Part shown: piece by piece, positions 2,637 through 36,654 of the stretch | How the letters are laid out: every line of letters starts with the position of its first letter | How positions within the stretch are numbered: position 1 is the stretch's first letter | Notes under the pieces: model-generated | Databases searched by the model: none | What the model was told of the DNA's origin: nothing | Seen by the model: only the letters and a program-made list of their open reading frames with translations | Position numbers and translations under genes: made by a program | Assembly (NCBI GenBank): GCA_022819985.1 | Contig: JAJEGH010000014.1 | Coordinates: forward strand, 8,086 to 72,085 | From: Alphaproteobacteria bacterium | Lineage (GTDB): Bacteria > Pseudomonadota > Alphaproteobacteria > Bin65 | Reading direction: 5' to 3' | DNA length: 64,000 bases

Positions 2637-2813
2637 GCCGCGAGGCGGCGCCGGACTGAATCCGCACCGTTCCAGCCCCTCCCCGCACGGATCGCGCGTG
2701 ACATAGCGATACTGCCGAACGGCTACCCGCCGCGAAGGTAGTTTGTTGCCAATGGTCCGATGGCGTATAGGATCGTTCCCAAGCTTTGTCGGCCGGGGGA
2801 TGGGTACAGCAAG

Positions 2814-5599: not shown

Positions 5600-5633
5600 A
5601 CTGCATAACCTTCGGCGCCTTCGGATACACGGG

Positions 5634-6428: not shown

Positions 6429-7186
6429 AGCTTCGGTTGATCCTGCTGCCGACAGCCAGCCTTGCGGCAATGCTGGCGATCTGGGAATTGGCGGTCTTCG
6501 GCCTCGACATTCCCGCCTATCTTCTGCCTGCGCCGAGCCGTGTTTGGTCGGCGGCGGTCGATATCGCCGCGGTGCTGCCGCGCCACATCGTTGCAACCTT
6601 GCTCACCGTGTTGTCGGGCTTTGCGCTTTCCACGGCCATATCGATACCCTTGGGTGTCGGCCTCTCGGTCAACAAAACGGTCTCTGAAGCGCTTTACCCG
6701 CTTCTGGTCTTTGCCAATGCCGTTCCGGTGATCGCCGTCGCGCCGATCATCGTGGTCATGTTCGGAACCGGTCTGGAATCGCGCCTGGTGATCACCCTGA
6801 TGGTCTGTTTTTTCCCCATCATGGTCGCCACCGCGACCGGAATTCTCGATACGCCGCGGGAGTATCTCGACCTTAGCAAATCGACCGGCGCGTCGTTCGG
6901 AATGGAACTCCTCACCATCCGCATGCCGCATGCTGCGCCCTTTATTTTCAGCGGGCTCAAGATCGGAATTACCTTGTCTGTGATCGGCGCCGTTGTCGGA
7001 GAGTTCATAACCTCGCAAAAAGGTCTCGGCTTTCTGATCGTGTCCGCTACGACAAATTTCGACCTGGCCCAGGCAATCGCCTCGGTTGTGGCCTTAGCGC
7101 TGATGAGCGTCGTGCTCTACCAGATCGTTCAACAGGTGCAGAAATTCTGGCTGCCCTGGTCGATCAAGGCCGAATCCATGACCTGA
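6425..7186 (+). CDS. ABC transporter permease (NitT/TauT family)
   Basis: ATGA start/stop overlap with the ATPase gene. Multi-span hydrophobic protein (MKLRLILLPTASLAAMLAIWELAV...). The upstream part of the 421-aa track ORF overlaps the ATPase gene and is rejected. Confidence 0.85.
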   Translation: MKLRLILLPTASLAAMLAIWELAVFGLDIPAYLLPAPSRVWSAAVDIAAVLPRHIVATLLTVLSGFALSTAISIPLGVGLSVNKTVSEALYPLLVFANAVPVIAVAPIIVVMFGTGLESRLVITLMVCFFPIMVATATGILDTPREYLDLSKSTGASFGMELLTIRMPHAAPFIFSGLKIGITLSVIGAVVGEFITSQKGLGFLIVSATTNFDLAQAIASVVALALMSVVLYQIVQQVQKFWLPWSIKAESMT

Positions 7187-7217
7187 CCGGACAAGCCGGG
7201 TACGCCCGTCGCTGGCG

Positions 7218-7622
7218 CTACTTTTCGATCAGTTCGACCTTGTAGCCGTCCGGATCCTCGATGAAGGCGATGACGGTCGTGCTGTGCTTCATCGGGCCCG
7301 GCGGGCGTGGGATGGCGACGCCGGCGGCTTCCAGCTTTGCACAGGTGCCGTAGATGTCCGGCACGCCCAGCGCGATATGGCCGTAGCCGGAACCGAGATC
7401 GTAGGGTTCTTCCTGGTCCCAGTTATGGGTCAGTTCCAGCACGGTATTGCTGGCCTCGTCGCCGTAACCGACGAAGGCGAGCGTGAAGCGACCGCCGGGA
7501 AAGTCCCGCTTGCGCAACAGGGTCATGCCCAGATGGCCGGTGTAGAAGGCGATCGACTCTTCCAGGTCGCGGACCCGCAACATGGTGTGCAGCATCCGGA
7601 AGGCGGGTTTCTCGTCGCTCAT
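7218..7622 (-). CDS. gloA: Lactoylglutathione lyase (glyoxalase I)
   Basis: 134 aa. Shows the HTMLRVRDLEESIAFY...ELTHNW...GYGHIALGV...FIEDPDGYKVELIE pattern typical of GloA. Its start overlaps the lpxB stop (ATGA). Confidence 0.9.
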   Translation of the reverse strand: MSDEKPAFRMLHTMLRVRDLEESIAFYTGHLGMTLLRKRDFPGGRFTLAFVGYGDEASNTVLELTHNWDQEEPYDLGSGYGHIALGVPDIYGTCAKLEAAGVAIPRPPGPMKHSTTVIAFIEDPDGYKVELIEK

Positions 7623-8818
7623 CGCTGGGCCCTTTCCCGAATGATCCGGAGAACGGTTTCGGCGGCAATCGCGCTCGGCTTGCGGCCGGGGACCGACAGC
7701 GTTCGCGCCACCGCACGAATACGCGCTGCCTGGGCGCGGCGCAACGCCGGATCGCGCAGCAGCGGCGCCAGGGCGTCGGCGAGAATTTCCGGCCGGCACC
7801 GCTCCAGAATGCACTCCGGCATGATCTCCTCGCCGGCCGCGAAATTGACCGCGGAAGCATAGGGCGAGTTCACGAGAAATCGCGCGAGCCGCCCTTCGAG
7901 CCGGGGCAGCTTGTAGGTCACGACCGCCGGCGTACCGGCGAAGGCCAGTTCGACCGTAACGGTGCCGGAGGCGGCGAGCGCCGCATCGGCCGCGGCGAAG
8001 GCGAGATATCTGGTCGCATCGGCGGGCAACGCAACCAGCGGCGCCGGCCAGTCCGCCGTCAGGGCAGACGCCAGGTCGCGGATCGAAGCCACGGTGGGCA
8101 TCAGGCAGACCGGCGCCAGGCCGACACTTTTCAGGCGCTGGATCGTCGCGCGGTACACGGGCAATAGCCGTCGCACTTCCTTGCGGCGGCTGCCGGGCAG
8201 CATGCAGAGCAGCGGGCTTGCGCCCTCGCCGGCATGGCGGTTGCGAAACCCGGCCACGTCCGCCGGGTCCGGCAGATCGGGCTCGGCTGCCGGGTGGCCG
8301 ACAAAGGTCACCGGCAGGCCGTGCGGCTCGAACCACGGCGCCTCGAAAGGAAAGATCGACAGCAGATGCGTCAGCCGCCCGGCGATGACCTTCGCCCGTC
8401 CGGGGCGCCATGCCCATACCGTCGGCGCCACATAGTGCACCAGCGTCTCGCCGCGCCGGGCCAGCCGCCGGCCCATATGGCCCGACAGGGCCTGGGCGTC
8501 GATCGTGACCACGCAATCGGGCCGGCGCCGGGCGATGTCGCGCTCAAGCTGCTTCATGCGCGCCAGGATGGTGCGCAACCGCGGCAGATAGTCGAGGCCC
8601 ATCACCGAAAACAGGTCGATGGAGAACAGGCTCTCCAGGCCGGCTTCCGCCATAGCCGGCCCACCGATGCCGCCGAAATCGACCTCATCTCCGGTCTGCC
8701 GCTTCAGCGCGCGGATCAGGTGCCCGCCGATCTGGTCGCCGGAAGGTTCGCCTACGATGAAATAGACGAGCGGCCGGCCGGCGCCGGGCCGGACCGGGTC
8801 ATGCGATGCGTTCGGCAT
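7619..8818 (-). CDS. lpxB: Lipid-A-disaccharide synthase
   Basis: N-terminus VYFIVGEPSGDQIGGHLIRAL is typical of LpxB. About 399 aa counted from the ATG at 8818. Sits downstream of lpxA-lpxI. Confidence 0.9.
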   Translation of the reverse strand: MPNASHDPVRPGAGRPLVYFIVGEPSGDQIGGHLIRALKRQTGDEVDFGGIGGPAMAEAGLESLFSIDLFSVMGLDYLPRLRTILARMKQLERDIARRRPDCVVTIDAQALSGHMGRRLARRGETLVHYVAPTVWAWRPGRAKVIAGRLTHLLSIFPFEAPWFEPHGLPVTFVGHPAAEPDLPDPADVAGFRNRHAGEGASPLLCMLPGSRRKEVRRLLPVYRATIQRLKSVGLAPVCLMPTVASIRDLASALTADWPAPLVALPADATRYLAFAAADAALAASGTVTVELAFAGTPAVVTYKLPRLEGRLARFLVNSPYASAVNFAAGEEIMPECILERCRPEILADALAPLLRDPALRRAQAARIRAVARTLSVPGRKPSAIAAETVLRIIRERAQR

Positions 8819-9659
8819 CCGTTTCGCCGCCGTCCGGGGCCAGCCCGACCAGGAACATCCCGGCCTTGTCCGCAGCCGCGACGACGGCATCCCGGTTGAC
8901 CAGAATCGTCCCGCCCGCTTCGACGGCAATGCCGCGCAGACCGGCCGCCGCTGCGTTTTCCACCGTCGCCGCGCCAACCGTCGGCAGGTCGATGCGCCGG
9001 TCCTGCCGGGACTTCCGGGTCTTGACCAGCACACCGCCCGGACCGGCGCGCCGGAGTCCGGCGCAGCGTTCGAGCAGGGCGTCGGTGCCCTCGATCGCTT
9101 CAACGCCCAGCACCAGCGACTGCTGCACGACCACCGCCTGGCCGACATCCAGATCGCCCAGCGACCGCGCGATCTCCAGCCCGCGCGCAATATCGCGCTG
9201 CGCCTGCTCGTCCGGCCCCGTGCGGCTGAGCGTTCCGGCAGGCGCCAGCAGCCCGGCGACGATGTCCTGGATGCCGACGACACGGAAACCAAAACACTCC
9301 AGTTCCGCCGCAACCGCCCGCAGCAGCCCGTCGTCGCCCAGCGACTTCATGGCGAACCGCGCGACGAAGGCCGCCGCCTTGGCGTCCGGCCGGATCTGCC
9401 GCAGGGCCGGCCGGCGAACCCGGCCGACCAGCACGACATCTCCGACGCCTTCTTCCCGCGCCCGTTTTACGAAACGCCCCGCAGCACCGATCCGGATGAC
9501 CTCGTGCCGCGCCGCAAAAACGGCGGGGTGATCGGCATGGCCTTCCAGCGCAAACACGAAATAGGGGCGGCCCACGCGTTCGCAGGCTTCAATGGCCAGC
9601 GCGGGGATTTCGCCGCCGCCGGCGACGATGGCGAGTGCCCCGGCCGCCGGTTCAGCCAC
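8799..9659 (-). CDS. lpxI: UDP-2,3-diacylglucosamine pyrophosphatase LpxI (DUF1009 family)
   Basis: Lies between lpxA and lpxB, as in alphaproteobacteria. Sequence LAIVAGGGEIP...DLDVGQAVVV...VEAIEGTDALL...VLVKTRKSRQDRRIDLPTVG. GTG at 9659 gives an 8-nt overlap with lpxA; the ORF maximum is 9701. Confidence 0.8.
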   Translation of the reverse strand: MAEPAAGALAIVAGGGEIPALAIEACERVGRPYFVFALEGHADHPAVFAARHEVIRIGAAGRFVKRAREEGVGDVVLVGRVRRPALRQIRPDAKAAAFVARFAMKSLGDDGLLRAVAAELECFGFRVVGIQDIVAGLLAPAGTLSRTGPDEQAQRDIARGLEIARSLGDLDVGQAVVVQQSLVLGVEAIEGTDALLERCAGLRRAGPGGVLVKTRKSRQDRRIDLPTVGAATVENAAAAGLRGIAVEAGGTILVNRDAVVAAADKAGMFLVGLAPDGGETDAERIA

Positions 9660-10449
9660 TTGTAGCCGGTGGCTGGCAGATCGGCCGGGTCGGATCCGCA
9701 CGGATGAAGTCGACGATTTCCCGTACCGCCGTGCTGCCGTTGAACATCTCGGCCACGTCGTTGGTGCGTTCGGTCAGCGTGCCTTCGGCCGCGAACAGCA
9801 ACCTGTAGGCGCGGCGCAACTCGTGGATCTGGCCGCGCGTATAGCCGCGGCGGCGCAGGCCGATCAGGTTCAGGCCCGAAAGCCCCTCGCGCACGCCGAT
9901 CACCAGACCATAGGGGATGATGTCGGCTTCCGAGGCCGACATCCCGCCCATCATGGCATGCCGGCCGACCCTGGCGAATTGCTGGATCGCCGAATTGCCG
10001 CCGAGGATCGCATAGTCGCCGATGGTGACGTGACCGCCCATAACGGCGTTATTCGCCATGATTACGCTGTTGCCGATGGTGCAGTCGTGCGCGACATGGG
10101 TGTTGACCATGAAGAGACAACTATCGCCCACCGTCGTCACGCCGCGGCCCTTGACCGTCCCGGTATGCAGGGTCGCATGTTCGCGGATGACGTTTTTCCT
10201 GCCGATGACCAGCCGGGTCGGTTCACCCCCGTAGGACAGATCCTGCGGCGGCAGTCCCACGCAGGCATGGGGGTAGATCACCGTGCCCTCGCCGACGCTG
10301 GTGTGCCCCTCGACGACGGCATGCTGCTTTACCGTGCAATGGTCTGCAAGCTCAACATGCGCACCGATCGTGGCATAGGGGCCGACGCGGACGGTGTCGG
10401 CCAGCGCGGCGGACCGGTCGACGATAGCTGTCGGATGAATATCGGGCAT
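9652..10449 (-). CDS. lpxA: Acyl-ACP--UDP-N-acetylglucosamine O-acyltransferase
   Basis: 265 aa. Starts MPDIHPTAIVD, followed by hexapeptide-repeat left-handed beta-helix sequence and a C-terminal helical domain. Confidence 0.93.
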   Translation of the reverse strand: MPDIHPTAIVDRSAALADTVRVGPYATIGAHVELADHCTVKQHAVVEGHTSVGEGTVIYPHACVGLPPQDLSYGGEPTRLVIGRKNVIREHATLHTGTVKGRGVTTVGDSCLFMVNTHVAHDCTIGNSVIMANNAVMGGHVTIGDYAILGGNSAIQQFARVGRHAMMGGMSASEADIIPYGLVIGVREGLSGLNLIGLRRRGYTRGQIHELRRAYRLLFAAEGTLTERTNDVAEMFNGSTAVREIVDFIRADPTRPICQPPATSG

Positions 10450-10462
10450 GGTGCGCCGCCGT

Positions 10463-10930
10463 TCAGCTCACTTCATCGACGATCATGGCGGTGTAGGTCG
10501 CTTCCGCAACCGTCTCGCCGTCAATCTTGCACACGCCGTCGAACTTCCAGACCAGTCGCCGGGCATGGCGCTTCTGCACATGGATGTGCATCCGGTCGCC
10601 GGGGCGGACCGGCCTGCGGAAGCGTGCGCCTTCGATCGACATGAAATAGACCAGCTTGCCCTCCATTTCCCGGCCGAGCGTTTCGATGACCAGGATTCCG
10701 GCGGTCTGCGCCATCGCCTCGATCATCAACACGCCGGGCATCACCGGCGCGCCCGGGAAATGGCCTTGGAAATAGGGTTCGTTGATCGACACATTCTTGA
10801 TCCCGACAGCGCTTTCGCCGCGCACCACATCCTCCATCCGGTCCACCATCAGGAACGGATAGCGGTGCGGCAGCACCTCCAGGATGCGCTGTATGTCCAG
10901 AACAGAGGGAAGCGTTTCGTCGGACACCAT
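10463..10930 (-). CDS. fabZ: 3-hydroxyacyl-ACP dehydratase
   Basis: 155 aa. Contains LPHRYPFLMVD and INEPYFQGHFPGAPVMPGVLMIEAMAQ (hot-dog fold catalytic region). Confidence 0.95.
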   Translation of the reverse strand: MVSDETLPSVLDIQRILEVLPHRYPFLMVDRMEDVVRGESAVGIKNVSINEPYFQGHFPGAPVMPGVLMIEAMAQTAGILVIETLGREMEGKLVYFMSIEGARFRRPVRPGDRMHIHVQKRHARRLVWKFDGVCKIDGETVAEATYTAMIVDEVS

Positions 10931-10999
10931 CGATCACCGGTTCGCCGCGGTCGCCGTGCAGGCGGCCAGGATCGGAGGCTCGCGCCAGGCAGGCGGCGA

Positions 11000-11611
11000 T
11001 TACTTCTTTTTCTGCTGCGCCTTTGCGCGCCGTTTCGTGACTGCTCCCGCGGCGCCGCCGACAGGATCCCTGTAGTCCAGCGCCAGTTTCGGCAGACGCT
11101 TGTTCAGCCGCGCAACGACCTTGTCGGTTATATCGTATTGCGGCGACGCATGAATCAGCGTGGCCTTGTTGACGATGAGCGTAAAGCCCCCTTCCACAGC
11201 CAGCGCCTTGACCACCAGGATGACTTCCTGACGGAATTTGACGAAAGACTTCTGGAAAGCCTCGTTCAGGGCGTCGCTGCGCGCCCGGGCCTGGCGACGC
11301 AATTTGACGATATCGGCCTGAAGCGTGCGCACCCGGCGTTCGTATTCGGAGCGCGACAGGTCCTTGTCTTTGCGCAGCCGGTCGTATTCCGCCTGCATTT
11401 CCTTTTCGCCGGTGCTCAGTTGCTTGTCGTACTTGTTGCGCAACGCCCGCAGCGCTTTCCGGACGCTGGCCATCGCATGCGACTGGCTTTGTACCTTTTG
11501 CACATCGACTATGGCGATCTGTGCCGCCGGCACCTTGCCTTGTGCGTTAGCCGGAGCAAGCACCGCCAATGCGAGCGCCGCGGCAAGTCCTGTGAGAGCG
11601 GTCTTGATCAT
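11000..11611 (-). CDS. skp: OmpH/Skp-family periplasmic chaperone
   Basis: 203 aa. Signal peptide (MIKTALTGLAAALALAVLAPANA), a K/E/R/Q-rich coiled body, and a position directly downstream of bamA. Confidence 0.8.
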   Translation of the reverse strand: MIKTALTGLAAALALAVLAPANAQGKVPAAQIAIVDVQKVQSQSHAMASVRKALRALRNKYDKQLSTGEKEMQAEYDRLRKDKDLSRSEYERRVRTLQADIVKLRRQARARSDALNEAFQKSFVKFRQEVILVVKALAVEGGFTLIVNKATLIHASPQYDITDKVVARLNKRLPKLALDYRDPVGGAAGAVTKRRAKAQQKKK

Positions 11612-19759: not shown

Positions 19760-20683
19760 TCAGCCGGCAAGCTGCGCCACTTCCGCGGCGAAATCGTCCG
19801 CCTTGCGTTCGACGCCTTCGCCCAGCCGATAGCACGCGAAGCCGGCGATCTCTACCGGCGCGCCGAACTCCTTTGCCGCCGCCGCGATGACCTTCGACAC
19901 TTTCGATTCGCCGTCGATCACCCAGGTCTGGTTCATCAGAACGACCTCTTCGTAGAACTTGCGGAGCCGGCCTTCGATCATCTTCTCGACGATCTCCGGC
20001 GGCTTGCCGCTGCCGGCGGCCTGTTCGCGCAGGATTTCGCGCTCTTTCTCGACAGTCCCGGCGTCCAGGTCCTCGGCGGTGACCGCCCGGGGGCTGCTCG
20101 CCGCGATGTGCATGGCGACCTGCTTGCCAAGCTGCTGCAACGCTTCGGGGTCGGCGGAGGATTTCATGCCGACCAGGACGCCGATCTTGCCCAGGCCGGG
20201 GCCGGCCGAATTGTGCATGTAGGAGGCGACGATCCCTTCATCGACGCTCAGGCCGGCCGAGCGGCGCAGGGTCATGTTCTCGCCGACGGTTGCAATCAGA
20301 TTGGTGAGTTCGCCTTCGACCGTGCGCCCGCTGTCCGGATAATCCGCCGCCTTGAGGGCCGCCGGATCGCCGCCGACCGTCAGCGCGATATCGGAAACCG
20401 CGCCGACGAATTCCTGGAAGCTCTCGTTGCGCGCCACGAAGTCCGTCTCGGCGTTGACCTCGACCAGGGCGCCCCGCCCGCCGGCGGTGCGCAGCCCGAC
20501 AAGGCCTTCCGCCGTCACCCGCCCGGATTTCTTCGCCGCGGCCGCCAGGCCCTTCTTGCGCAGCCATTCGCCGGCCGCCTCGATATCGCCGCCGGATTCG
20601 ACCAGAGCCTTCTTGCAGTCCAGCATGCCGGCGCCGGTGCGCCCGCGCAGTTCCTTCACCATGGACGCACTGATCTGAGTCAT
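19760..20683 (-). CDS. tsf: Translation elongation factor Ts
   Basis: MTQISASMVKELRGRTGAGMLDCKKAL UBA-like N-terminus. 307 aa. Sits downstream of rpsB. Confidence 0.95.
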   Translation of the reverse strand: MTQISASMVKELRGRTGAGMLDCKKALVESGGDIEAAGEWLRKKGLAAAAKKSGRVTAEGLVGLRTAGGRGALVEVNAETDFVARNESFQEFVGAVSDIALTVGGDPAALKAADYPDSGRTVEGELTNLIATVGENMTLRRSAGLSVDEGIVASYMHNSAGPGLGKIGVLVGMKSSADPEALQQLGKQVAMHIAASSPRAVTAEDLDAGTVEKEREILREQAAGSGKPPEIVEKMIEGRLRKFYEEVVLMNQTWVIDGESKVSKVIAAAAKEFGAPVEIAGFACYRLGEGVERKADDFAAEVAQLAG

Positions 20684-20768
20684 CTTATCCTCGTGTTCGC
20701 TGGGTCTTTGCCGGGCGTTCGCCGGCTTCCCTGCAGCGGGCTGCGCGGCGCCTGCCTGCGGCCGGCGT

Positions 20769-21875
20769 TCAGCCGGCAGCCTTTTCTTCGGCGGGCTGTT
20801 CTTCGGCCGCTTGCCCGCCCGCGCCCGGCGCTTCGGTGTCCTTCGCCTCGCCGTCCGGCGGTTCGGCGTCCTGTCCTTCCGCTTCCGGCGTTTCGGCAGT
20901 TTCCGCTGCGGCGTCAGCAGCCGTGTCCGGTACGCCTTCCGCCGCCGTTTCCCCGGCCGGCTCCGGAGCCGATTCCGAATCCGCTTCGGGGACCGTTTCC
21001 GGGGCAGCTACCGGGGCACCCTCCGGAGCCGGGCCATCGCCTTTTTCCGGTGCGCCGCCGGGCTCGGCGGACTCTGCCGGCTCGGTCCCGGCTGCGGCGG
21101 CCTCGCCCTCCGCGGAGGCGTCGGGCAACTCTTCGGGCAGCGGCGCCTCGGCCTCGCCCAAGTCGCCGCCGGACAGCGCCACTTCCTGCGCCAGCCCGTC
21201 CAGCACCGCGCCCCAGAAGAGTTCCATATAGATTTCGATGGCGCGCAGCGAATCGTCGTTGCCGGGCACCGGAAAGTCGATGCCGTCCGGGTCGCTGTTG
21301 CTGTCGATCACGGCGATCACCGGGATTTTCAGCTTGTTCGCCTCGGCAACGGCAATCGCTTCCTTGTTCGTGTCGATCACGACGACGATGTCCGGCAGGG
21401 CGGACATTTCCTTGATGCCGCCCAGCGCCTTTTCCAGCTTGTCGCGCTCGCGGGTGAGCTGGAGCAATTCCTTTTTGGTCAGGCCCTGGGTCTCTTCCTC
21501 GTTGCCGAGCTGTGCATCGAGGGCCTTCAGGCGGGCGATGGACCGCTGGATGGTCGCCCAGTTGGTCAGCATGCCACCGAGCCAGCGGTGGTCGACATAG
21601 AACTGGCCGCAGCGCTCGGCGGACTGGGCGATCATGCGCGACGCCTGGCGCTTGGTGCCGACGAACAGCACCCGGCCACCCGCCGCCGCCACCTCGCGCA
21701 CCGCATTCATGGCGCGCTGGAGCAGCGGCACGGTCTGCTGCAGGTCGATGATGTGGACATTGTTGCGCGCGCCGAAGATGTAGGGCGACATCTTCGGGTT
21801 CCAGCGGCGCGTGTTGTGTCCGAAATGAACGCCAGCCTCGAGCAGCTGGCGCATGGTGAAGTTCGGCATCGCCAT
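20769..21875 (-). CDS. rpsB: 30S ribosomal protein S2 with an unusually long acidic A/E/P-rich C-terminal tail
   Basis: [29 protein letters not shown] is a canonical S2 start. The conserved core ends near ...GAVLDGL and is followed by about 130 low-complexity residues. The ORF opens at 21911. Confidence 0.92.
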
Positions 21876-22248
21876 GGCATGTTCCTTTACCGGTTCGGCC
21901 GCCGCGGACATTCATCCGGCCCTTGGCCGTTTCGGCCATCGGAGTCCGGACACCGGAACGACAGAACCGGATTTCCCGGCCGCCGCAAATCCGCGTGAGG
22001 GGTTGACGGCGCAAGACCTAGGCTCGCAGCGGTCGAAGCGCAACGCCCGCGCGGCGGCATGCGGCAAATCTCCTGCCTGCGGGCCCGTCCGTGCTGGCGC
22101 GGCGCTCCCGGCGGGATCGTGCGGGGGGTGCCTGGGTCGCCGGCGCGGCCGGCCCGTTGCTTGGGCGCCGGCCGCCATGCTCTGCTGCGGCGCGAAGGCG
22201 CACTATTACAAAATGTTGACGATTCTGGGCGTGCGCCACAAAATCTTG

Positions 22249-22277
22249 TTGACAAATTTTCCTGTCGCCTTTATGGA
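22249..22277 (+). promoter_or_regulatory. Sigma70-like promoter candidate (TTGACA-N17-TATGGA), preceded by a second TTGACG copy inside a direct repeat
   Basis: TTGACA at 22249-22254, a 17-nt spacer, TATGGA at 22272-22277. ACAAAAT..TTGAC occurs twice (22208-22220 and 22238-22253). The patch is AT-rich within GC-rich DNA. Confidence 0.35.
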
Positions 22278-22283
22278 GACGCC

Positions 22284-22359
22284 GCACAGGTGCGAAAGAC
22301 GCGGACAGGCCCTGGCACAGCAAACCCGGCTGCACCCCGGTGCGGCCGGGTTTTGTTTT
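22284..22359 (+). ncRNA. Candidate small RNA of about 75 nt (promoter to intrinsic terminator); family not recognised
   Basis: Bounded by the promoter candidate above and a strong terminator hairpin. There is no ORF or RBS inside. The 5' end is only predicted. Confidence 0.25.
22325..22359 (+). terminator. Rho-independent terminator
   Basis: An 11-bp stem (CCCGGCTGCAC / GTGCGGCCGGG, with one G-U pair), loop CCCG, followed by TTTTGTTTT. Confidence 0.55.
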
Positions 22360-22390
22360 ACGGTATCGGCGGCGAAAACGGACGGTCCTG

Positions 22391-22826
22391 TCCTTCGGCG
22401 GGGCAGCAGGCTCCCCGGTCCGAAGGCAGTGCTCCAAACGCAAAGAAGGCGCCAGGTGCTTCGACGCGGACGTCCCTGCATGGCTCCGAAGAGCCCCCTG
22501 ACACCTTCTCTGCGGGTTTGCCCCGAAGGGCTCCCCACACGGTCTCGAACCCGAAGGTCCGGACCACGGGCTCGCCCTTGCAGGCTGCCCTACCGGTCCG
22601 CGTCCCCGAAGGTCCGCTTTCCGGCTGCCGGCTCGCCCGAAGGCTCCCCGGCTCCCGACCTCGACGACCGAAGCCGCCTGGCCGTTCCGCCTTCGATCCG
22701 GTCCCGAGGGCTCGGCTCTCCGGCTCAAGCGCCGATCGCCCGAAGGCTTTCGCCGCTTCCGCGACCGGCTTCCTTGCGGTCACCCATCGCGTGAATGGAT
22801 ACTGCTTCGCCCCCGCCGCCGAAGCA
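22391..22826. repeat. Dispersed array of CCGAAG(G) motifs (CCTTCGG on the minus strand) in non-coding DNA
   Basis: CCGAAG starts at 22420, 22486, 22523, 22551, 22606, 22637, 22668, 22740 and 22819, and six of these are CCGAAGG. There is one inverted copy, CTTCGG, at 22393. Several copies sit in short stems (GGCTC-CGAA-GAGCC, GCCC-CGAA-GGGC). Confidence 0.6.
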
Positions 22827-22857
22827 ACAAAAAATTACACCGGATCTTCGAAATTTC

Positions 22858-22964
22858 GGTGGATAACCAAGTAGTTAGCGGACAAATGACCTAAAATTTT
22901 TCCACAATTCGACACAAGCTCGGCAGATTTCCGCCGATTCCGCCTGTGGATAAAGTTATCCCCA
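22858..22964. promoter_or_regulatory. Cluster of four DnaA-box-like 9-mers in an AT-rich patch
   Basis: GGTGGATAA at 22858-22866 (reverse complement TTATCCACC), TTTTCCACA at 22898-22906, TGTGGATAA at 22945-22953 (a perfect TTATCCACA on the other strand), and TTATCCCCA at 22956-22964. Flanked by A/T runs (AACAAAAAATTACA, CTAAAATTTTT, AGAAATTTTCA). Confidence 0.5.
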
Positions 22965-23034
22965 AGAAATTTTCATCGGGAAGCGAACGGCGGCGCAGCG
23001 GGTGCCGGACAGCCGGCCGGGCAGGCGCGACCCG

Positions 23035-23826
23035 TTACCCGCCGTTCCGGTTCACAAGGGCGCGCGCATAGAGCGGATGGTGCAGGCTACGCACTTCGTG
23101 CTCGATGGCGAACAGCGGTGCCTCCGCCCCCGGCGCCGCGATTTCCACGAAGCGGTACTGGCTCGCATTGTCCTCGGCAGTGATGAGGCTGCGTTCGGCG
23201 AGCGCACGGTACGGGCCGGAAAAGTCCGCGGCGTAGACCGCCACATGGTGCCCGTCGTATTCGGCTGCGGGCGCATCGCTCTCGCGGAACAGGAAATGCT
23301 GGCCCGGCCCCACCGTCACCCGCGCGCAGCCGCCGTCGACCGCCGCCGGCGCCCCCATCACCGCGCAGTAGAACTGCGCGATGCCCGCCGCCGCCCGCTC
23401 GGGAACCGGCATGTCGAGGTAGGGAATACCCAGCGGACCGAAGCCGCCGCCGGCCGCGTGCGCCCGGAAGCGGTTGCCCCACGGGCAGGTCAGCGCGACA
23501 TGGCCGTTTTCGCGGCGCCACGAGAACTGCGTTCCGTCGAGCCGGGCGGCGACCCGGCGCAGCCGTTCCTCGAGCGCGTCCAGATCCGGCAGAACCAGGC
23601 CGATGACCCCGCGGAAGCGCTGCGGGTTTCCCCTCGGCAGGTGGAATTGCTGGCGGCCGGCGTTGATCCACATATTGTCGGTGCCGACCATCATATAGGG
23701 GTCGCGGGTCAGTCCCAGTCCGGCGACGTAGAAGTCCGTCGCCGTCTCCTGGTCCGGGACGGTGAGGTTGACATGCTCGAAGCAAACGATGTTGCCGACG
23801 TCCTGGGAAGCGGGATCGAAGCGCAT
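23035..23826 (-). CDS. Hypothetical protein, possibly a VOC (glyoxalase/dioxygenase-fold) family member
   Basis: 263 aa with coding-like composition. The N-terminal FEHVNLTVPDQETATDFYVAGLGLTRDP resembles a VOC beta-alpha-beta-beta-beta module. The family call is tentative. Confidence 0.55.
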   Translation of the reverse strand: MRFDPASQDVGNIVCFEHVNLTVPDQETATDFYVAGLGLTRDPYMMVGTDNMWINAGRQQFHLPRGNPQRFRGVIGLVLPDLDALEERLRRVAARLDGTQFSWRRENGHVALTCPWGNRFRAHAAGGGFGPLGIPYLDMPVPERAAAGIAQFYCAVMGAPAAVDGGCARVTVGPGQHFLFRESDAPAAEYDGHHVAVYAADFSGPYRALAERSLITAEDNASQYRFVEIAAPGAEAPLFAIEHEVRSLHHPLYARALVNRNGG

Positions 23827-23911
23827 GTGCTGCTCCTCGCTCTTTTTTGCCCGGATCGCCGGCCCGGCCCTCCAGGTCAGGCCCGCCAGCCCGGCTACGC
23901 GTCGGGCGCCC

Positions 23912-24460
23912 CTACGGCACAGTGCCGATCCGGCCGAAATCGGTCGAGGCGATATGGGCCATCAGGGTCGTCCGGTCCGACGTGCCGAAAAAGAGCACCG
24001 AATAGCGGCCGCCGACGAAAGTGGCGGCGGTGTACTCGCCCTGAATCTCCACGATCGCAAATCGCTGGCCCGCAATGTCCCGGAATTCGCCCTTCCTGGC
24101 CCGGACCACGGCGGGGTCCATGAAGGTCCGTTTCCGCTTTTCCAGCGTCTCCGGCGTTTCGCTGCGCACCGCGATCGCGATAACGGGCTTGCCGTCCGCA
24201 TCCAGATAGACCCGCTGGACGCGAACCTGCCCGGTTTCGGCATTGTCCTCGATCCGCTCGCGCGCGGTATAGCCGTCCAGGGGCGCCGGCAGCGCCCTGG
24301 CCAGCCTGTCGCCGCGGGTCGGCGCCTCCCGGCCCGCGGTCCCGGATTCGGTCCCCGCCCGGGACCCGGACGCGGATTGCGCTTCGGCGAGGGCGACCGC
24401 GCCGACGACGAGGACGGCGGCGGCGAGATGCAGGAACAGCAGGCGGCCCCAACGGGACAT
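23912..24460 (-). CDS. Secreted hypothetical protein
   Basis: The ATG at 24460 is preceded by GGAGAA. Signal peptide MSRWGRLLFLHLAAAVLVVGAVALAEA. No family recognised. Confidence 0.6.
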   Translation of the reverse strand: MSRWGRLLFLHLAAAVLVVGAVALAEAQSASGSRAGTESGTAGREAPTRGDRLARALPAPLDGYTARERIEDNAETGQVRVQRVYLDADGKPVIAIAVRSETPETLEKRKRTFMDPAVVRARKGEFRDIAGQRFAIVEIQGEYTAATFVGGRYSVLFFGTSDRTTLMAHIASTDFGRIGTVP

Positions 24461-24630
24461 GCGGTTCTCCGGCGTTGGCGGATCGGGAGCGTGTTCGGCC
24501 GGCGGTATAGCATCGCCCCCGGTGCGACGCCACAGCCGCACAGCGCTTCCGACGCGCGGCGACCCGTCTGCTGGCGGCGGGCGGCCTTCCGGTGTAGCAG
24601 CGACTGCCAGCCTCCGACAGGAGCCCGTTC

Positions 24631-25941
24631 ATGATTCCCCGCTATACCCGCCCGGCCATGGCCGCTGTCTGGGAACCGGCCAGCCGCTTTCGCATCTGGT
24701 TCGAGATCGAGGCCCATGCCTGCGACGGGCTGGAGAGGCTCGGTGCGCTTCCCGAAGGCACGGCGGCGGCGGTGTGGCGCAACGGCGACCGGCCCTACAC
24801 GGCGGAGCGGATCGCCCGCATCGACGCCATCGAGGCCGAGGTCAAACACGACGTCATCGCCTTCCTGACCGAGCTGGCCGAACAGGTCGGCCCGGAAGCG
24901 CGTTTCGTCCATCAGGGCCTCACCTCGTCCGACATTCTGGATACCGGCTTTGCGGTGCAGCTCACGCGGGCGAGCGATCTGTTGCTGGCCGGCCTCGACG
25001 GCCTGCTCGCCGCGCTCAGGCGCCGGGCCGAAGAGCACAAGTTCACCCGGACGATGGGCCGGAGCCACGGCATTCACGCCGAGCCGACCACCTTCGGCGT
25101 CAAGCTGGCCGGCCATTATGCCGAATTCGCCCGCTGCCGGGCGCGGTTGGAAGCGGCGCGGGCGGAGATCGCGACCTGCGCCATCTCCGGCGCCGTCGGC
25201 ACCTTCGCCACCGTCGATCCGCGTGTCGAAGCGCATGTCGCGGAAAAGCTCGGCCTGACGCCCGAGCCCGTTTCCACCCAGATCATTCCGCGTGACCGCC
25301 ACGCCATGTATTTTGCCACCCTCGGCGTCATCGCCGGCGCCGTCGAGCGGCTGGCGGTTGAGATTCGGCATCTACAACGCACCGAGGTGCGCGAAGCGGA
25401 GGAATTCTTCTCCGAGGGCCAGATGGGCTCCTCGGCCATGCCGCACAAGCGCAATCCGATCCTGACCGAGAACCTGACCGGCCAGGCCCGGATCATTCGC
25501 GGCATGGTCCTGCCGGCACTGGAAAACGCCGCCCTGTGGCACGAGCGCGACATCTCCCACAGCTCGGTCGAGCGGCAGATCGCCCCGGACGCCACGGTGG
25601 CGCTGGATTTCTCGCTGGCCCGTCTGACCGGCGTCGTCGACAAACTGGTGGTCTATCCCGAGCGCATGGCCGCCAACGCCGACGCCCTGGGCGGCCTGCA
25701 CAATTCGCAGCGGGTCCTGCTGGCGCTCACCCAGGCCGGGATGAGCCGGGAAGACGCCTACCGCGCCGTCCAGCGCCACGCCATGACGGTCTGGCAGGAC
25801 GGCGGCGACTTCGCGGCTTCGCTCAAGGGCGACGCCGAAATCGCCGTCCGTCTGACCGCCGACGCCATCGACGCCCTGTTCGACCCGGCCTTCCACACCC
25901 GGCACGTCGAGACGATCTTCGAGCGGGTGTTCGGCGGGTGA
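24631..25941 (+). CDS. purB: Adenylosuccinate lyase
   Basis: 436 aa. Starts MIPRYTRPAM, contains the fumarate-lyase signature GSSAMPHKRNP, and has an ADSL C-terminal region. Confidence 0.95.
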   Translation: MIPRYTRPAMAAVWEPASRFRIWFEIEAHACDGLERLGALPEGTAAAVWRNGDRPYTAERIARIDAIEAEVKHDVIAFLTELAEQVGPEARFVHQGLTSSDILDTGFAVQLTRASDLLLAGLDGLLAALRRRAEEHKFTRTMGRSHGIHAEPTTFGVKLAGHYAEFARCRARLEAARAEIATCAISGAVGTFATVDPRVEAHVAEKLGLTPEPVSTQIIPRDRHAMYFATLGVIAGAVERLAVEIRHLQRTEVREAEEFFSEGQMGSSAMPHKRNPILTENLTGQARIIRGMVLPALENAALWHERDISHSSVERQIAPDATVALDFSLARLTGVVDKLVVYPERMAANADALGGLHNSQRVLLALTQAGMSREDAYRAVQRHAMTVWQDGGDFAASLKGDAEIAVRLTADAIDALFDPAFHTRHVETIFERVFGG

Positions 25942-25969
25942 TTTGGCAGCCGGCGAGGCGGGCGGCGGC

Positions 25970-26194
25970 TCAGTCCGGCAGGTCGATTGCCGGCCGGAAC
26001 GGGTCGTCATAACCCAGGACCGAGCCTTCCATCGCGCCGATGATCGAGGAGGCTTTCTCCGCCGGCGGAGCAGGCGACAGCACGGCCAGCGGCCGGCCGC
26101 GTTCGGTGATCGTAACCGGCTCGCGGTCCTCGCACATCTGTTCGATCACACGGAGGCATGTGGCCTCGAATTCGGCCGCGGCTATCGTTTTCAC
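25970..26194 (-). CDS. Phd/YefM-family type II antitoxin (no adjacent toxin gene)
   Basis: 74 aa. MKTIAAAEFEATCLRVIEQMCEDREPVTITERGRPLAVLSP is a typical Phd/YefM N-terminal domain. Only 28 nt separate its stop from the convergent purB stop. Confidence 0.8.
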   Translation of the reverse strand: MKTIAAAEFEATCLRVIEQMCEDREPVTITERGRPLAVLSPAPPAEKASSIIGAMEGSVLGYDDPFRPAIDLPD

Positions 26195-26318
26195 CGTCGT
26201 CCCCGTTGCAGCGTCGTGCAGGTTTCTAACTTACCGGCGACCCAGTCAAACCTGATTGGTTTCGGCAAGACGGCAAGTCCGGTCTTTGTCGTTCATAGGC
26301 TCTGAACCGATCACTTTG

Positions 26319-26347
26319 TTGTCAATTTTTGCCAAAGCCGTTAGTCT
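26319..26347 (+). promoter_or_regulatory. parDE promoter candidate (TTGTCA-N17-TAGTCT) placing the TSS at or next to the parD ATG
   Basis: TTGTCA at 26319-26324, a 17-nt spacer, TAGTCT at 26342-26347. The ATG is at 26354, and no Shine-Dalgarno sequence lies in between. Confidence 0.4.
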
Positions 26348-26353
26348 CTTTGC

Positions 26354-26593
26354 ATGAGCACCATGAACATATCGCTGTCCGAATCTCTCAAGTCCTTCGT
26401 TGAAGATCAGGTTGGCGCAAACGGTTACAGCACATCCAGCGAGTATGTCCGCGAACTGATTCGCAAGGACCGAGACCGCCTGCGCCTGCGCGCCCTCCTT
26501 CTCGAAGGCGCGGCCTCGCCGAAGGCCGGCATGGCCGATGCAGACTATTTCGACGAACTCCGTGCCCGGATCCACGAAGCCGGCCAGCCGTGA
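26354..26593 (+). CDS. parD: ParD/CopG-type ribbon-helix-helix antitoxin
   Basis: 79 aa. MNISLSESLKSFVEDQV...YSTSSEYVRELIRKDRDR is typical of ParD-like RHH antitoxins. Its stop overlaps the parE GTG start (GTGA). Confidence 0.85.
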   Translation: MSTMNISLSESLKSFVEDQVGANGYSTSSEYVRELIRKDRDRLRLRALLLEGAASPKAGMADADYFDELRARIHEAGQP

Positions 26594-26919
26594 GCGGAAA
26601 ACCGGTCGTATTGCGCAAGCGGGCGCAGCACGACATCGACGAGGCTGTAGGGTATTATCTGGCCGAGGCTGGACCGACCGTTGCGCTGGCTTTTGTCGAC
26701 GCACTGGAAGACGCCCGCCGGAGTATCGGCGAGCTGCCGGCGATCGGCTCGCCCCGCTATGCACTCGAACTGGATATTCCCGGCCTGCGCGTCCGGTCTG
26801 CCGGAAGGTTTCCGTATCTGATCTTCTATGTCGAGAGAGAGACGGAAATCGAAGTCTGGCGCGTCCTCCACGGCGCGCGCGACATACCCTCCAGGATGAT
26901 GGAACTACGCGAGAACTGA
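26590..26919 (+). CDS. parE: ParE/RelE-family toxin
   Basis: 109 aa. A...RAQHDIDEAVGYY... start and C-terminal FPYLIFYVERETEIEVWRVLHGARD, typical of ParE toxins. Translationally coupled to parD. Confidence 0.85.
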   Translation: MSGKPVVLRKRAQHDIDEAVGYYLAEAGPTVALAFVDALEDARRSIGELPAIGSPRYALELDIPGLRVRSAGRFPYLIFYVERETEIEVWRVLHGARDIPSRMMELREN

Positions 26920-34247: not shown

Positions 34248-35828
34248 ATGAGCGAAGAACGCGGCAGGAAGCCCGGAGAGCGGGCCGGACGGGCCGGGCG
34301 GCGGTCCGGCAGGGCCGGCGGCGGCCGGGAAAGCCGGCGCGCGGCGCGGACCGCCGGGCCGGTCGAGCAGCTGCGCGCGATCCGGCGCAAAATCCCCAGG
34401 GTCGAGCTGCTGTCGGCCGAGGGGCTGGAGCTTATCGAGCATAACGCCGACACGATCCTGGAAGAGGTCGGCATCGAGTTCCACGACGATCCGGAATGTC
34501 TGGAGATGTTCCGCGATGCCGGCGCGGACGTTGACGAAACGCGCGTCCGTTTTCCGCGCGGCCTCGCCCGGCAACTGTGCTCGACCGCGCCGGCGCAATA
34601 CACCCAGCACGCGCGCAACCCGGAACGCTCGGTGGAGATCGGCGGCGACCACACGGTGTTCGCGCCGGTCTACGGCCCGCCCTTCGTGCGCGACCTCGAC
34701 CGGGGCCGGCGCTACGGCACCATCGAGGATTTCCGCAACTTTGTGAAGCTCGCGTACCTGTCGCCCGCCCTGCACCATTCGGGCGGGACGGTGTGCGAGC
34801 CGGTCGACGTGCCGATCGCCAAGCGGCATCTCGACATGGTCTACGCGCATATGCGCCTTTCGGACAAACCCTTCATGGGCTCGGTCACCCATCCGGAGCG
34901 CGCCGCCGACACCGTCGCCATGGCGAAGATCCTGTTCGGCGACGACTTCGTCGACGAAAACTGCGTCTGCACCAGCCTGATCAACGCCAATTCGCCCATG
35001 GTGTTCGACGCCACCATGCTGGGCGCGCTCAAGACCTATGCCAAAGCCGGCCAGGCGACGGTGGTCAGCCCCTTCATCCTGGCCGGCGCCATGGCGCCCG
35101 TAACCGTCGCCGGCGTGATGGCCCAGACGCTGGCCGAGGCGATGGCCGGCATCGCCGTGACCCAGCTCTGCCGGCCGGGGACGCCGGTGGTGTTCGGCAG
35201 CTTCTCGAGCTCGATCTCCATGCAGTCCGGCGCGCCGACCTTCGGCACCCCGGAGCCGGCGCTCGCCCTGTTCGGCCTGGCGGCGCTGGCGCGCCGGCTC
35301 GGCCTGCCCTTCCGCAACGGCGGTTCGCTCTGCGCCTCGAAGCTGCCGGACGCCCAGGCAGCCTACGAAAGCGCGAACACGCTGATGCCGACGGTATTGG
35401 CCGGGGTGAATTTCGTGCTCCACGCCGCCGGCTGGCTCGAAGGCGGGCTGGCGTCGAGCTACGAGAAGCTGGTCATGGACGCCGACCAGCTCGCCCTGCA
35501 CCAGGTGATCGCCGGCGGCTACGACCTGTCGGAGAACGGCCAGGCGCTGAGCGCGGTGCGCGAGGTCGGCCCGGGCAGCCACTATCTCGGCTGCCAACAT
35601 ACCCAGGACAATTTCGAGACCGCCTTCTGGCGCTCGGCGGTCGCGGACAACAACAGCTTCGAGCAATGGCAGAGCGACGGTTCGAAGGACATCGTCGCGC
35701 GCGCCAACGAGCGCTGGAAGGCCATGCTGGCGAGCTACGAGGCGCCGCCGATCGACCCGGCGATCGACGAGGCGCTGATCGCGTTCATCGCGAAGAAAAA
35801 GGAGAGCCTGCCCGACGGGATCGGGTGA
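34248..35828 (+). CDS. MttB-superfamily (trimethylamine methyltransferase family) protein, non-pyrrolysine type
   Basis: 526 aa, uninterrupted (no in-frame TAG). Family-typical blocks: LSAEGLELIEHNADTILEEVGIEF, FAPVYGPPFV.D, NANSPMVFD, SPFILAGAMAPVT, GAPTFGTPE, KLVMDADQL, GPGSHYLG..HT. Arg-rich N-terminal extension. Confidence 0.9.
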   Translation: MSEERGRKPGERAGRAGRRSGRAGGGRESRRAARTAGPVEQLRAIRRKIPRVELLSAEGLELIEHNADTILEEVGIEFHDDPECLEMFRDAGADVDETRVRFPRGLARQLCSTAPAQYTQHARNPERSVEIGGDHTVFAPVYGPPFVRDLDRGRRYGTIEDFRNFVKLAYLSPALHHSGGTVCEPVDVPIAKRHLDMVYAHMRLSDKPFMGSVTHPERAADTVAMAKILFGDDFVDENCVCTSLINANSPMVFDATMLGALKTYAKAGQATVVSPFILAGAMAPVTVAGVMAQTLAEAMAGIAVTQLCRPGTPVVFGSFSSSISMQSGAPTFGTPEPALALFGLAALARRLGLPFRNGGSLCASKLPDAQAAYESANTLMPTVLAGVNFVLHAAGWLEGGLASSYEKLVMDADQLALHQVIAGGYDLSENGQALSAVREVGPGSHYLGCQHTQDNFETAFWRSAVADNNSFEQWQSDGSKDIVARANERWKAMLASYEAPPIDPAIDEALIAFIAKKKESLPDGIG

Positions 35829-36008
35829 GCGGCCTTCGGGACGGCACCGGCGCGCTCTTTTGGCGCCCTCCTCAGGATTGCTCTGCGGAAGGGAGCGCCG
35901 GCCGCAGGTTGGCATTCTTTTTTTGAACAATCATTCCAGTATATTTTCTCCGCAAACGCTGTTTTTTCCGCAGTTTTCCATCGTTTTTCCGCGGTCATAC
36001 CGAATTAG

Positions 36009-36022
36009 ACAGACCGGTCTGT
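36009..36022. promoter_or_regulatory. Perfect 14-bp palindrome ACAGACCGGTCTGT in an AT-rich patch with phased T-tracts
   Basis: Read directly from the sequence. Embedded in TTAGACAGACCGGTCTGTATTTTGATATTTTTTTGCA. T-tracts around 35962, 35974 and 35984 are spaced 10-12 nt apart. Confidence 0.4.
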
Positions 36023-36184
36023 ATTTTGATATTTTTTTGCACTTTGAAGCTCTCGAATCGCTCGAAGACCGCAGAAACGCTGGGAAGTCGCGATTCGGGG
36101 GGCCGCAAAAAAATTCCTGGCAGGAAATATTCCATATTCCGCTCCGAGCGATGGCCCGCGTCCCGAACCCGCCTCCCCCTTTAT

Positions 36185-36362
36185 CGTCATTTCGACCGGA
36201 GCCCCGGCCCCCGGCCGGGGCGGAGTGGAGAAATCTGGCCCGCGCTCCATCGACGCCGCAGGGCTGTGCCTGTGGCCGGCCTTCGTCGCCGGCCGGATTT
36301 CTCCGCTCGCTTCGCTCGGTCGAAATGACGGGTGGGCGGTGCGCTCCGGTCGGAATGACGGA
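36185..36362. repeat. REP/MITE-like inverted-repeat element (CGTCATTTCGACCGG ... CGGTCGAAATGACG) with an extra half-site
   Basis: The left arm at 36185-36240 (CGTCATTTCGACCGGAG...GGAGTGGAGAAATCTGGCC) pairs with the right arm at 36291-36330 (GGCCGGATTTCTCCGCTC...CGGTCGAAATGACG). A third copy, CGGTCGGAATGACG, lies at 36347-36360. Confidence 0.6.
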
Positions 36363-36617
36363 AGGGAGCGAGTCGCCAGCGGAGCGGACGCACTTCGGGT
36401 GCTGGCAAAAGCACATATAAGGAACATGATTCGCAATGTCAAGGACAATTATCGAAAAAAAGGAAATATTTTGAAGACTGCCCCGGCGAACCCCGGCGCA
36501 CCCGCCGCATGCAGGGTGCAGGGCGGCGGCCGAATCTCCCTTTTCGCAGAGAAATCGTGAGGAGCGGTTCCCCTCGGCTTCGCTCGGGGCGGGCTCCGCA
36601 CTCCGTCCCGAAGCCCC

Positions 36618-36650
36618 GTCTCGAAGGCGTCTCGAAGGCGTCTCGAAGGA
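36618..36650. repeat. 11-nt tandem repeat x3 (GTCTCGAAGGC) immediately 3' of the activase gene stop
   Basis: GTCTCGAAGGC GTCTCGAAGGC GTCTCGAAGGA. The last unit forms the hairpin GGCGTC-TCGAAG-GACGCC, a possible terminator for the minus-strand operon. Confidence 0.7.
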
Positions 36651-36654
36651 CGCC

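Follow-up and report, generated by a model that had tools for sequence, protein, structure and literature searches.

The locus

This report concerns a cluster of four DnaA boxes and the two RNA genes beside it, in a 64-kilobase (kb) stretch of alphaproteobacterial DNA (contig JAJEGH010000014.1). The window means this whole 64-kb stretch, and all positions are window coordinates. The boxes lie in a gap of 1.1 kb (21900-23035) without coding signal, between rpsB and a glyoxalase-like gene, and the gap holds three elements (Table 1): the box array itself, spread over 107 nucleotides (nt); a large structured RNA gene, absent from the annotation, which by its sequence conservation appears to begin about 30 nt beyond box 4; and a gene resembling that of a small RNA (sRNA). 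An earlier interpretation made from the letters alone (below, the sequence-only reading) had singled out the four 9-mers as a candidate replication origin or DnaA-binding locus; their positions and strands, including the back-to-back placement of boxes 1 and 2, were confirmed.

Table 1. Features of the box-RNA-sRNA module and of its immediate surroundings, in window coordinates.
Feature	Sequence or motif	Position	Strand	Remarks
DnaA box 1	TTATCCCCA	22956-22964	+	distal half of the back-to-back pair; 9/9 columns invariant in 7 lineages
DnaA box 2	TTATCCACA	22945-22953	-	perfect consensus; points away from box 1; 9/9 columns invariant
DnaA box 3	TTTTCCACA	22898-22906	+	7/9 columns invariant
DnaA box 4	TTATCCACC	22858-22866	-	RNA-proximal; 7/9 columns invariant
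Large structured RNA, about 390 nt		22435-22830	-	extent from nhmmer; unannotated; rich in CCUUCGGG (UUCG) and GNRA hairpins
3' domain of the large RNA	AGAGAAGGUGUCA...GACGUCCGCGUC...CACCUGGCGCCUUCUUU	22443-22511	-	nearly invariant; target of the sRNA complementarity
-10-like hexamer of the large RNA	TAATTT	22832-22837	-	putative promoter element, read from alignments
Alternative core promoter, -35	CTTGGT	22866-22871	-	putative
Alternative core promoter, -10	GAAGAT	22844-22849	-	putative; 16-nt spacer to the -35, containing box 4
sRNA-like gene, about 80 nt		22284-22361	+	convergent to the large RNA; about 45 nt of nearly invariant sequence
sRNA -35	GTTGACA	22248-22254	+	invariant
sRNA -10-like	TATGGA	22272-22277	+	17 nt after the -35
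sRNA intrinsic terminator		22322-22353	+	strong; followed by a T-run
sRNA block 1	CAGGUGC	22287-22293	+	conserved; complementary to the 3' domain of the large RNA
sRNA block 2	GACGCGGAC	22298-22306	+	as block 1
sRNA block 3	CCCUGGCAC	22310-22318	+	as block 1
Tandem motifs	ACAAAAT-N-TTG(N)GAC	22208-22255	+	conserved; upstream of the sRNA
rpsB		20769-21875	-	left of the array
rpsB leader		21877-21999	-	Rfam RF01815; context, outside the module; kept in relatives without the module
Glyoxalase-like gene		23035-23826	-	3' end 70 nt from box 1; syntenic; absent in L009-L011
Small signal-peptide protein gene		23912-24460 (or 24541)	-	no family match

A conserved array of four DnaA boxes

Related loci were gathered from GTDB genomes with RpsB as the handle, and metagenome contigs were added to them, five through the RNA motif and seven through a spurious open reading frame (ORF) placed over the region. 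One of these twelve contigs (L083) ends before the boxes and is excluded from the count, which leaves 17 loci with a readable box stretch: six rpsB-linked relatives and 11 metagenome loci. The close relatives are all uncultured marine or sponge-associated alphaproteobacterial metagenome-assembled genomes (MAGs), labelled 'Rhodospirillaceae bacterium'. The same boxes, in the same order and orientation, lie upstream of rpsB in L001, L002, L005, L009, L010 and L011 (55-70% GC). Among closed relatives the array was located in OY762427.1 (2,994,411-2,994,517), OZ244891.1 (3,661-3,767) and OZ244899.1 (3,249,333-3,249,398), and it stands at about 3,055,945-3,056,051 in contig ctg246041_41x_c of ERZ25072076.

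Counting as a box any site with at most one mismatch to TTATCCACA on either strand, we find five in the 64 kb, four of them inside the 107 nt of the array. The surrounding patch (22826-22980) has 42% GC; 20,000 shuffles that preserve its dinucleotides carry 0.038 boxes on average and in no case as many as three. Five other AT-rich patches of the window were scanned and no box was found in any. The sequence-only reading had placed the boxes in the most AT-rich DNA of this part; the patch is indeed among the most AT-rich of the window, although 35851-36155 (40% GC) is slightly more so and has no DnaA boxes. The latter falls within an 826-nt gap (35829-36654) between mttB-like and RACo genes. The cluster is real and far beyond chance even given the local AT-richness, and no other such cluster occurs in the 64 kb or in about 300 kb of related loci.

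All four boxes recur with identical order and orientation in 17 of the 17 readable loci. Across seven distinct lineages, over which identities were computed, the boxes are 92-100% identical, against 63-65% for the spacers between them, and the spacing itself is constant: 2 nt between boxes 1 and 2, 37-38 nt between boxes 2 and 3 in all loci, and 31 nt between boxes 3 and 4. The sole change in length is a 10-nt deletion, about one helical turn, which brings the last gap to 21 nt in L010 and L011. Box 3 becomes a perfect TTATCCACA in L010, L011 and L081, and AAATTTCTT, which flanks box 1, is nearly invariant too. As read from these alignments, such a footprint is a classical sign of protein-DNA assembly.

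The protein in question could conceivably be another one. Boxes 1 and 2 together make a perfect 6+6 inverted repeat with a 2-nt spacer, GGATAA-N2-TTATCC, to which a different dimeric helix-turn-helix regulator might bind, the likeness to DnaA boxes then being a coincidence. Both halves of the palindrome, however, match the DnaA box over all nine positions, and boxes 3 and 4 are non-palindromic single 9-mers conserved as DnaA boxes, box 3 with the perfect consensus in the three loci named above. Since the match extends over all nine positions and includes these two single boxes, DnaA is favoured over a generic dimeric regulator, which we consider highly improbable. The presence of full 9-mers in palindromic and single contexts, the footprint and the fixed spacing make the term 'DnaA-binding locus' a well-supported prediction in silico.

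The fifth DnaA-box-like site of the window, TGATCCACA at 23664-23672 (+), lies inside the glyoxalase-like coding sequence, about 700 nt from the array. It is found at the same place in all relatives with that gene, reads TAATCCACA in L097 and L098, and presumably corresponds to the spelling of the Caulobacter 'G-box'. Its conservation may be explained by coding constraint.

A large structured RNA next to the boxes

From the boxes, conservation runs for about 390 nt toward rpsB, over a GC-rich stretch that is G-skewed on the minus strand. The homologues differ there by insertions and deletions of 1, 2, about 50 and about 100 nt, and these frame-breaking differences rule the stretch out as protein-coding. 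Its predicted fold (RNAalifold, eight sequences) has 98 pairs, and compensatory double changes occur in 19 of these; in an independent pair count 96.5% of cells were paired; the observed values were reached in 0 of 500 shuffles, and controls with slid partners gave 33-43% pairing and 2-6 compensatory pairs. The structure contains 70 G-U cells, and the plus-strand version of it pairs only 87.9% of cells. Likewise, the minimum free energy is -213.8 kcal/mol (z -4.0) for the minus strand versus -163.1 kcal/mol (z -0.85) for the plus strand. G-U pairs and folding energy thus both assign the RNA to the minus strand. Within the structure, helices 16-19 form the 3' domain, and 12 of the 15 pairs of helix 16 never vary. 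A conserved 5' hairpin at the start of the RNA was also considered and proved unsupported across lineages.

The ORF at 22059-22874 (+) and the other ORFs of the gap were rejected as coding sequences: they have no Pfam match and no GC signal at third codon positions (GC3), and the DNA under them shows the frame-breaking differences and the RNA-type covariation described above. Gene callers put a 271-amino-acid 'hypothetical protein' across the RNA, and domainless 'hypothetical proteins' of 200-350 amino acids on the strand opposite to it (P0001-P0010) form a small family in public protein databases. This ORF family is almost certainly spurious, and such calls hide the RNA gene in current annotations.

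Searches against known families gave no identity for the RNA. Rfam 15 gave no match to it or to the sRNA at E <=1 over 20000-26000 and only noise at E up to 10 over 22150-23000, and none was found in the homologues L009, L010, L081 and L082. Identification as tmRNA, RNase P, signal recognition particle or 6S RNA was rejected after negative results with ARAGORN and Rfam. The range of the RNA so far is narrow, namely marine and sponge-associated alphaproteobacterial MAGs.

A convergent sRNA complementary to the 3' domain

The second RNA gene points toward the first and has promoter-like elements and an intrinsic terminator of its own. In L010 and L011 the terminator stem is swapped for a different hairpin, and the G-U pairs fit the plus strand. 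The blocks CAGGUGC, GACGCGGAC and CCCUGRCAC of the sRNA are complementary to GCACCUG, GUCCGCGUC and GUGUCAGGG of the large RNA, respectively, over 7+9+9 bp, and the only variable position of the blocks (G or A) still pairs with an invariant U. The duplex energy between both RNAs is -48 to -57 kcal/mol in five lineages versus -34 to -41 kcal/mol for shuffled sRNA. This complementarity, found in the sequences of both partners, suggests that the sRNA is an antagonist of the large RNA.

On the plus strand, the sRNA blocks are a direct repeat of 22453-22459, 22463-22471 and 22496-22504, and part of the 3' domain of the large RNA may have been duplicated to give rise to the sRNA. The tandem motifs upstream of the sRNA can be read either as two stacked promoters (TTGACG-17-CAAAAT and TTGACA-17-TATGGA) or as the binding sites of an unknown regulator.

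Boxes, RNA and sRNA as one unit

In all 17 loci that allow both to be read, the boxes are accompanied by the RNA, and the sRNA is found in every locus with the module that extends far enough. Six relatives (L003, L004, L006, L007, L008 and L012) have the rpsB promoter and leader and none of the three parts. The surroundings, on the other hand, are changeable. The glyoxalase gene is lost in L009-L011 with the module intact, insertions of 0.5-2 kb separate RNA and sRNA in L011, L084 and L085, and the rpsB side is replaced by an IS110 transposase in L095 (4817-5749) and by sox/HbpS genes in L097 and L098. Since the unit survives the changes around it, we conclude that its linkage is to the purB side and that rpsB regulation does not involve it. 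A recurrent rearrangement breakpoint lies between the sRNA and the rpsB promoter, with unrelated DNA in L003, L004, L007, L008 and L012.

The array as a possible replication origin

The more ambitious proposal of the sequence-only reading was a replication origin. In this case, the array would be the oriC of the lineage, relocated to the neighbourhood of purB and rpsB; DnaA would assemble on all four boxes and open one of the short A/T tracts beside them, and the RNA and sRNA genes would lie inside the origin or border on it. As in an oriC, the boxes form a strong cluster, which is strictly conserved, fixed in its spacing, endowed with one perfect consensus box and the only one of its kind in all the DNA surveyed. 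Each of the terminal boxes points outward, toward a short A/T tract that is conserved, the essential rpsB-to-bamA cluster is co-oriented with forks leaving the site, and a noncoding RNA (ncRNA) gene inside an alphaproteobacterial origin has a precedent (PMC8959179).

One closed chromosome of 3.11 Mb, OZ244891.1 (L009, positions 1-11456), starts 3.6 kb from the array, inside a gene resembling that of dimethylglycine dehydrogenase (DMGDH). We gave this no weight as support for an origin, since the start is in mid-gene and the records of two other closed relatives begin at other places. It is probably an arbitrary assembly start, albeit a coincidence of low probability.

Strand composition speaks against an origin here, with the proviso that the tests are local, covering the 64-kb window of a genome whose skew is weak. 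An origin at 22.9 kb predicts a flip in the sign of GC3 skew, and none is seen: minus-strand genes have the higher coding-strand GC3 skew on both sides. To the right of the site, the values are -0.170 for plus-strand genes and -0.115 for minus-strand genes (p=0.044), and to the left -0.096 and -0.061 (not significant). Raw skew, too, keeps its negative sign across the site (-0.029 to the left, -0.009 to the right), in spite of the larger amount of plus-strand coding sequence to the right. The GC-skew switch that had been looked for at the site is absent from the 64 kb, and the cumulative minimum falls at 61.5 kb, not at 22.9 kb. Correlation of k-mer strand skew between both sides (r ~0.02) is dominated by gene orientation, and the counts of GGGNAGGG, resembling FtsK-orienting polar sequences (KOPS), comprise too few sites for polarity.

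The neighbourhood and the anatomy of the site point the same way. As had been noticed from the sequence, genes to the left point away from the boxes (the rpsB-tsf-pyrH-frr-uppS-cdsA-dxr-rseP-bamA cluster on the minus strand), those to the right are of mixed orientation, which counts against an origin, and hemE, parAB and dnaA are missing from the window. Indeed, dnaA/dnaN, hemE, parAB and gidAB are all absent among the annotated window genes, and dnaA, hemE and parAB are absent in the related loci as well; a tblastn search of all the related DNA and the window, with the DnaA of E. coli as query, gave no match and so no position of dnaA relative to the module. The gltX-gltA...bamA...rpsB cluster, which we take to lie far from the origin in Caulobacter and Sinorhizobium, also counts against it. 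The interval from the RNA to the upstream gene measures only some 200-270 bp. The AT-rich tracts once put forward as an unwinding element amount to three separate A/T tracts of 11-13 nt (22825-22839, 22889-22904 and 22964-22976) with no conserved repeats, no repeated 13-mers and no trio periodicity. Neither a CtrA box (TTAA-N7-TTAA) nor an IHF consensus is found at the site, and its single GANTC, the GATTC at 22936, is present as described but not conserved among relatives.

The origin thus finds no support in any test run, be it local skew, anatomy or neighbouring genes, and we regard it as unlikely that the array is the oriC of this lineage. A bolder variant, in which an origin at this site fires with the participation of both RNAs, seems to us decidedly improbable. 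Should the site be an origin after all, it would be an unusual one for Alphaproteobacteria, in that it would lack hemE, CtrA sites and any clear unwinding element and would be fused to an RNA pair.

A proposed DnaA-responsive control region for the large RNA

The sequence-only reading had described the boxes as not adjacent to any promoter and had found promoter regulation no obvious explanation for them. Both statements fall with the conserved structured RNA gene, missing from the annotation, directly upstream of which the boxes lie, at 20-130 bp. A hexamer of the TAnnnT type is kept within +/-1 nt in all lineages, at 19-21 nt from box 4, and the RNA start is about 30 nt from this box; this places the array next to a putative core promoter. 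Two promoter models can be drawn. With TAATTT as the -10, box 4 sits at the -35 position, which favours activation by DnaA. With CTTGGT-16-GAAGAT, the -35 of which reads CTCGAC in L010 and L011, the spacer contains box 4, and repression is favoured.

We propose that the RNA gene (about 390 nt) has in the array a DnaA-responsive 5' control region through which DnaA controls its transcription, a reading suggested by the sequences to which we give about an even chance. DnaA is an established transcription factor in Alphaproteobacteria (PMC3193534). Mechanistically, boxes 1 and 2 would act as a high-affinity back-to-back pair, accompanied by the single boxes 3 and 4, with fixed distances among them and to the -10-like hexamer. 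DnaA occupancy would set the amount of RNA, coupling it to the level of DnaA and so to the state of replication and growth, by activation or repression depending on the promoter model. In turn, the sRNA would pair with the invariant 3' domain through its three blocks and unfold that domain. DnaA binding, the promoter and its transcription start, the sign of control, the pairing of both RNAs in vivo and their cellular role are what we infer from the comparisons above.

Several points weigh against this proposal. The transcription start, and even transcription from this promoter, are predictions; no consistent structure is seen over roughly the first 40 nt of the RNA, which leaves its 5' end uncertain; and the TAATTT model lacks a recognisable -35 in the alignments, the position being occupied by box 4. 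Furthermore, four high-quality boxes over 107 bp are in excess of the needs of a simple operator and look like a site of DnaA assembly, and conserved box clusters of such quality are most often origins. The module could also be an origin with an RNA gene simply adjoining it, like ccnA in the Caulobacter Cori (PMC8959179).

Taken globally, control of the RNA by DnaA leads to a broader hypothesis, which we advance tentatively and hold to be somewhat short of even: a hitherto undescribed three-part riboregulatory module in which a new class of large RNA is joined to a DnaA array that would wire its synthesis to the initiator and to a dedicated sRNA that would unfold its 3' domain. Such a module might serve as an RNA read-out of DnaA status, or as a feedback onto it, in slow-growing symbiotic Alphaproteobacteria. 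If DnaA does control the RNA, Alphaproteobacteria would have an initiator output that is new, and the RNA would belong to a large ncRNA class that is new as well; the boxes, the partner sRNA and the genomes of the closed relatives offer experimental handles for it.

Genomic context of the module

Beyond the glyoxalase-like gene and the small signal-peptide protein gene, the right side of the window carries purB (+), a toxin-antitoxin pair, a DMGDH-like oxidoreductase, an MttB/corrinoid/RACo cluster and genes of general metabolism, and gltA and gltX lie at the far left end. A '245-aa' ORF at 23895-24632 was rejected as being in the wrong frame; the actual gene is that of the signal-peptide protein (23912-24460/24541, minus strand), which has no link to DnaA. 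The toxin-antitoxin cassette, between purB and the DMGDH-like gene at about 25370-26870, occupies a variable spot, with ParE/Phd in the window and in L093 and PIN/Phd in L091, L095 and L096; L087 is also listed.

RpsB itself is 368 amino acids long with a C-terminal extension of about 110 amino acids; in the relatives it is called at 327-394 amino acids and the extension varies. The RpsB peptides EPGGAPEK and EEQPAEEK, used as search handles, probably come from this tail, and the protein matches the NCBIfam 'sunset domain variant' model below threshold. Two further Rfam matches lie far to the right. A cobalamin riboswitch (RF00174, 101.5 bits) at 47081-47288 (-) stands upstream of the cobalt-transporter gene cbtA at 46138-46866 (-), and a borderline PYLIS_3 match at 35331-35427 (+), with 38.3 bits versus a gathering score of 38, falls inside the MttB-family methyltransferase gene at 34248-35828, where it probably reflects gene homology and not a pyrrolysine insertion element.

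Comparison with known systems

To our knowledge, conserved DnaA-box clusters away from the origin are few, their mechanism is understood mainly in E. coli and B. subtilis, and no equivalent of datA or of the DnaA-reactivating sequences (DARS) is known in Alphaproteobacteria. With DARS1, DARS2 and datA the array shares the nature of a non-origin chromosomal box cluster that includes an adjacent, oppositely oriented pair. It could accordingly be a site for the management of DnaA, by titration or by control of its nucleotide state, as in datA, DARS or the B. subtilis clusters, with its position next to the RNA incidental or merely modulating. The high affinity of a cluster outside any recognisable origin, the oppositely oriented pair and the fixed geometry are in keeping with such a role, and E. 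coli DARS1 likewise lies in a promoter region (bioD-uvrB), next to further DnaA boxes (PMC6868365).

The DARS core architecture, however, was tested and differs from that of the array. In DARS, boxes I and II are oppositely oriented and 5 bp apart, and box III is oriented as box II (PMC6868365); read from NC_000913.3, E. coli DARS1 is TTATCCACT-N5-TGTGGATAA-N3-TGTGTATTA, with converging boxes and box III adjacent. The pair of the array, in contrast, diverges (TGTGGATAA-N2-TTATCCCCA on the plus strand) across a gap of 2 bp, and the other boxes are 31-38 bp away. A consensus scan for an IHF site of the datA/DARS2 type, WATCAANNNNTTR, gave no match in 22760-23040 on either strand. Moreover, the strict linkage to the RNA and the fixed distance to its start in 17 of 17 loci would be needless for a titration site, and we judge a role in DnaA management to be quite unlikely.

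Transcriptional control of the RNA by DnaA finds its nearest parallel in DnaA-regulated promoters, such as those of the Caulobacter DnaA regulon and of E. coli dnaA, nrdAB and uvrB P3, in which boxes lie within or just upstream of the core promoter (PMC3193534). The E. coli uvrB region also carries a TTATCCCCA box. The present locus differs from these promoters in its four rigidly spaced boxes over 107 bp and in a unit that is a large structured ncRNA and not a protein gene, and it is known from sequence alone. The Cori/ccnA region of Caulobacter crescentus similarly joins a DnaA-box region to an ncRNA gene (PMC8959179). The CtrA, AT-rich and hemE features of Cori, however, are all lacking at the array, and no skew switch is seen in the 64 kb; and ccnA, under the control of CtrA, gives a short base-pairing sRNA, whereas the large RNA here is highly structured and has no CtrA box.

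ColE1, with RNA II and RNA I, offers another likeness, in that a long structured RNA and a short complementary one lie side by side near DnaA boxes. Here, by contrast, the genes do not overlap (they are 75-2000 nt apart), the complementarity would act in trans over 7+9+9 bp and is to a 3' domain, and the module stands without a rep gene in a chromosomal housekeeping context. A plasmid-derived replicon was considered and rejected, as a distant blastn search of the whole module against a plasmid collection gave no match. Viral contigs scanned for the RNA motif and the box pair yielded nothing but two matches by chance and one unrelated phage that carries arrays of DnaA boxes. In the viral contig L090 (IMGVR_UViG_3300044630_005784; 59% GC; 2.9 kb examined), stretches of 3-9 DnaA boxes lie at 126-217, 809-900, 1599-1721 and 2439-2501, with eight boxes within about 90 nt in the first; these arrays are possibly a phage device for DnaA titration or an origin.

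Finally, the large RNA recalls OLE, GOLLD, ROOL, HEARO and raiA, which are likewise several hundred nt long, with many tetraloop-capped helices, strong covariation and no assigned function. It matches none of them in sequence or structure, and it differs from them in having a DnaA-box array on its 5' side and a dedicated complementary sRNA. We know of no DnaA-box cluster outside an origin that is tied to a large structured RNA. The array itself is best classed with the non-origin DnaA-box clusters and DnaA-regulated promoters, and the more novel part of the module is the Rfam-unmatched RNA with its complementary sRNA.

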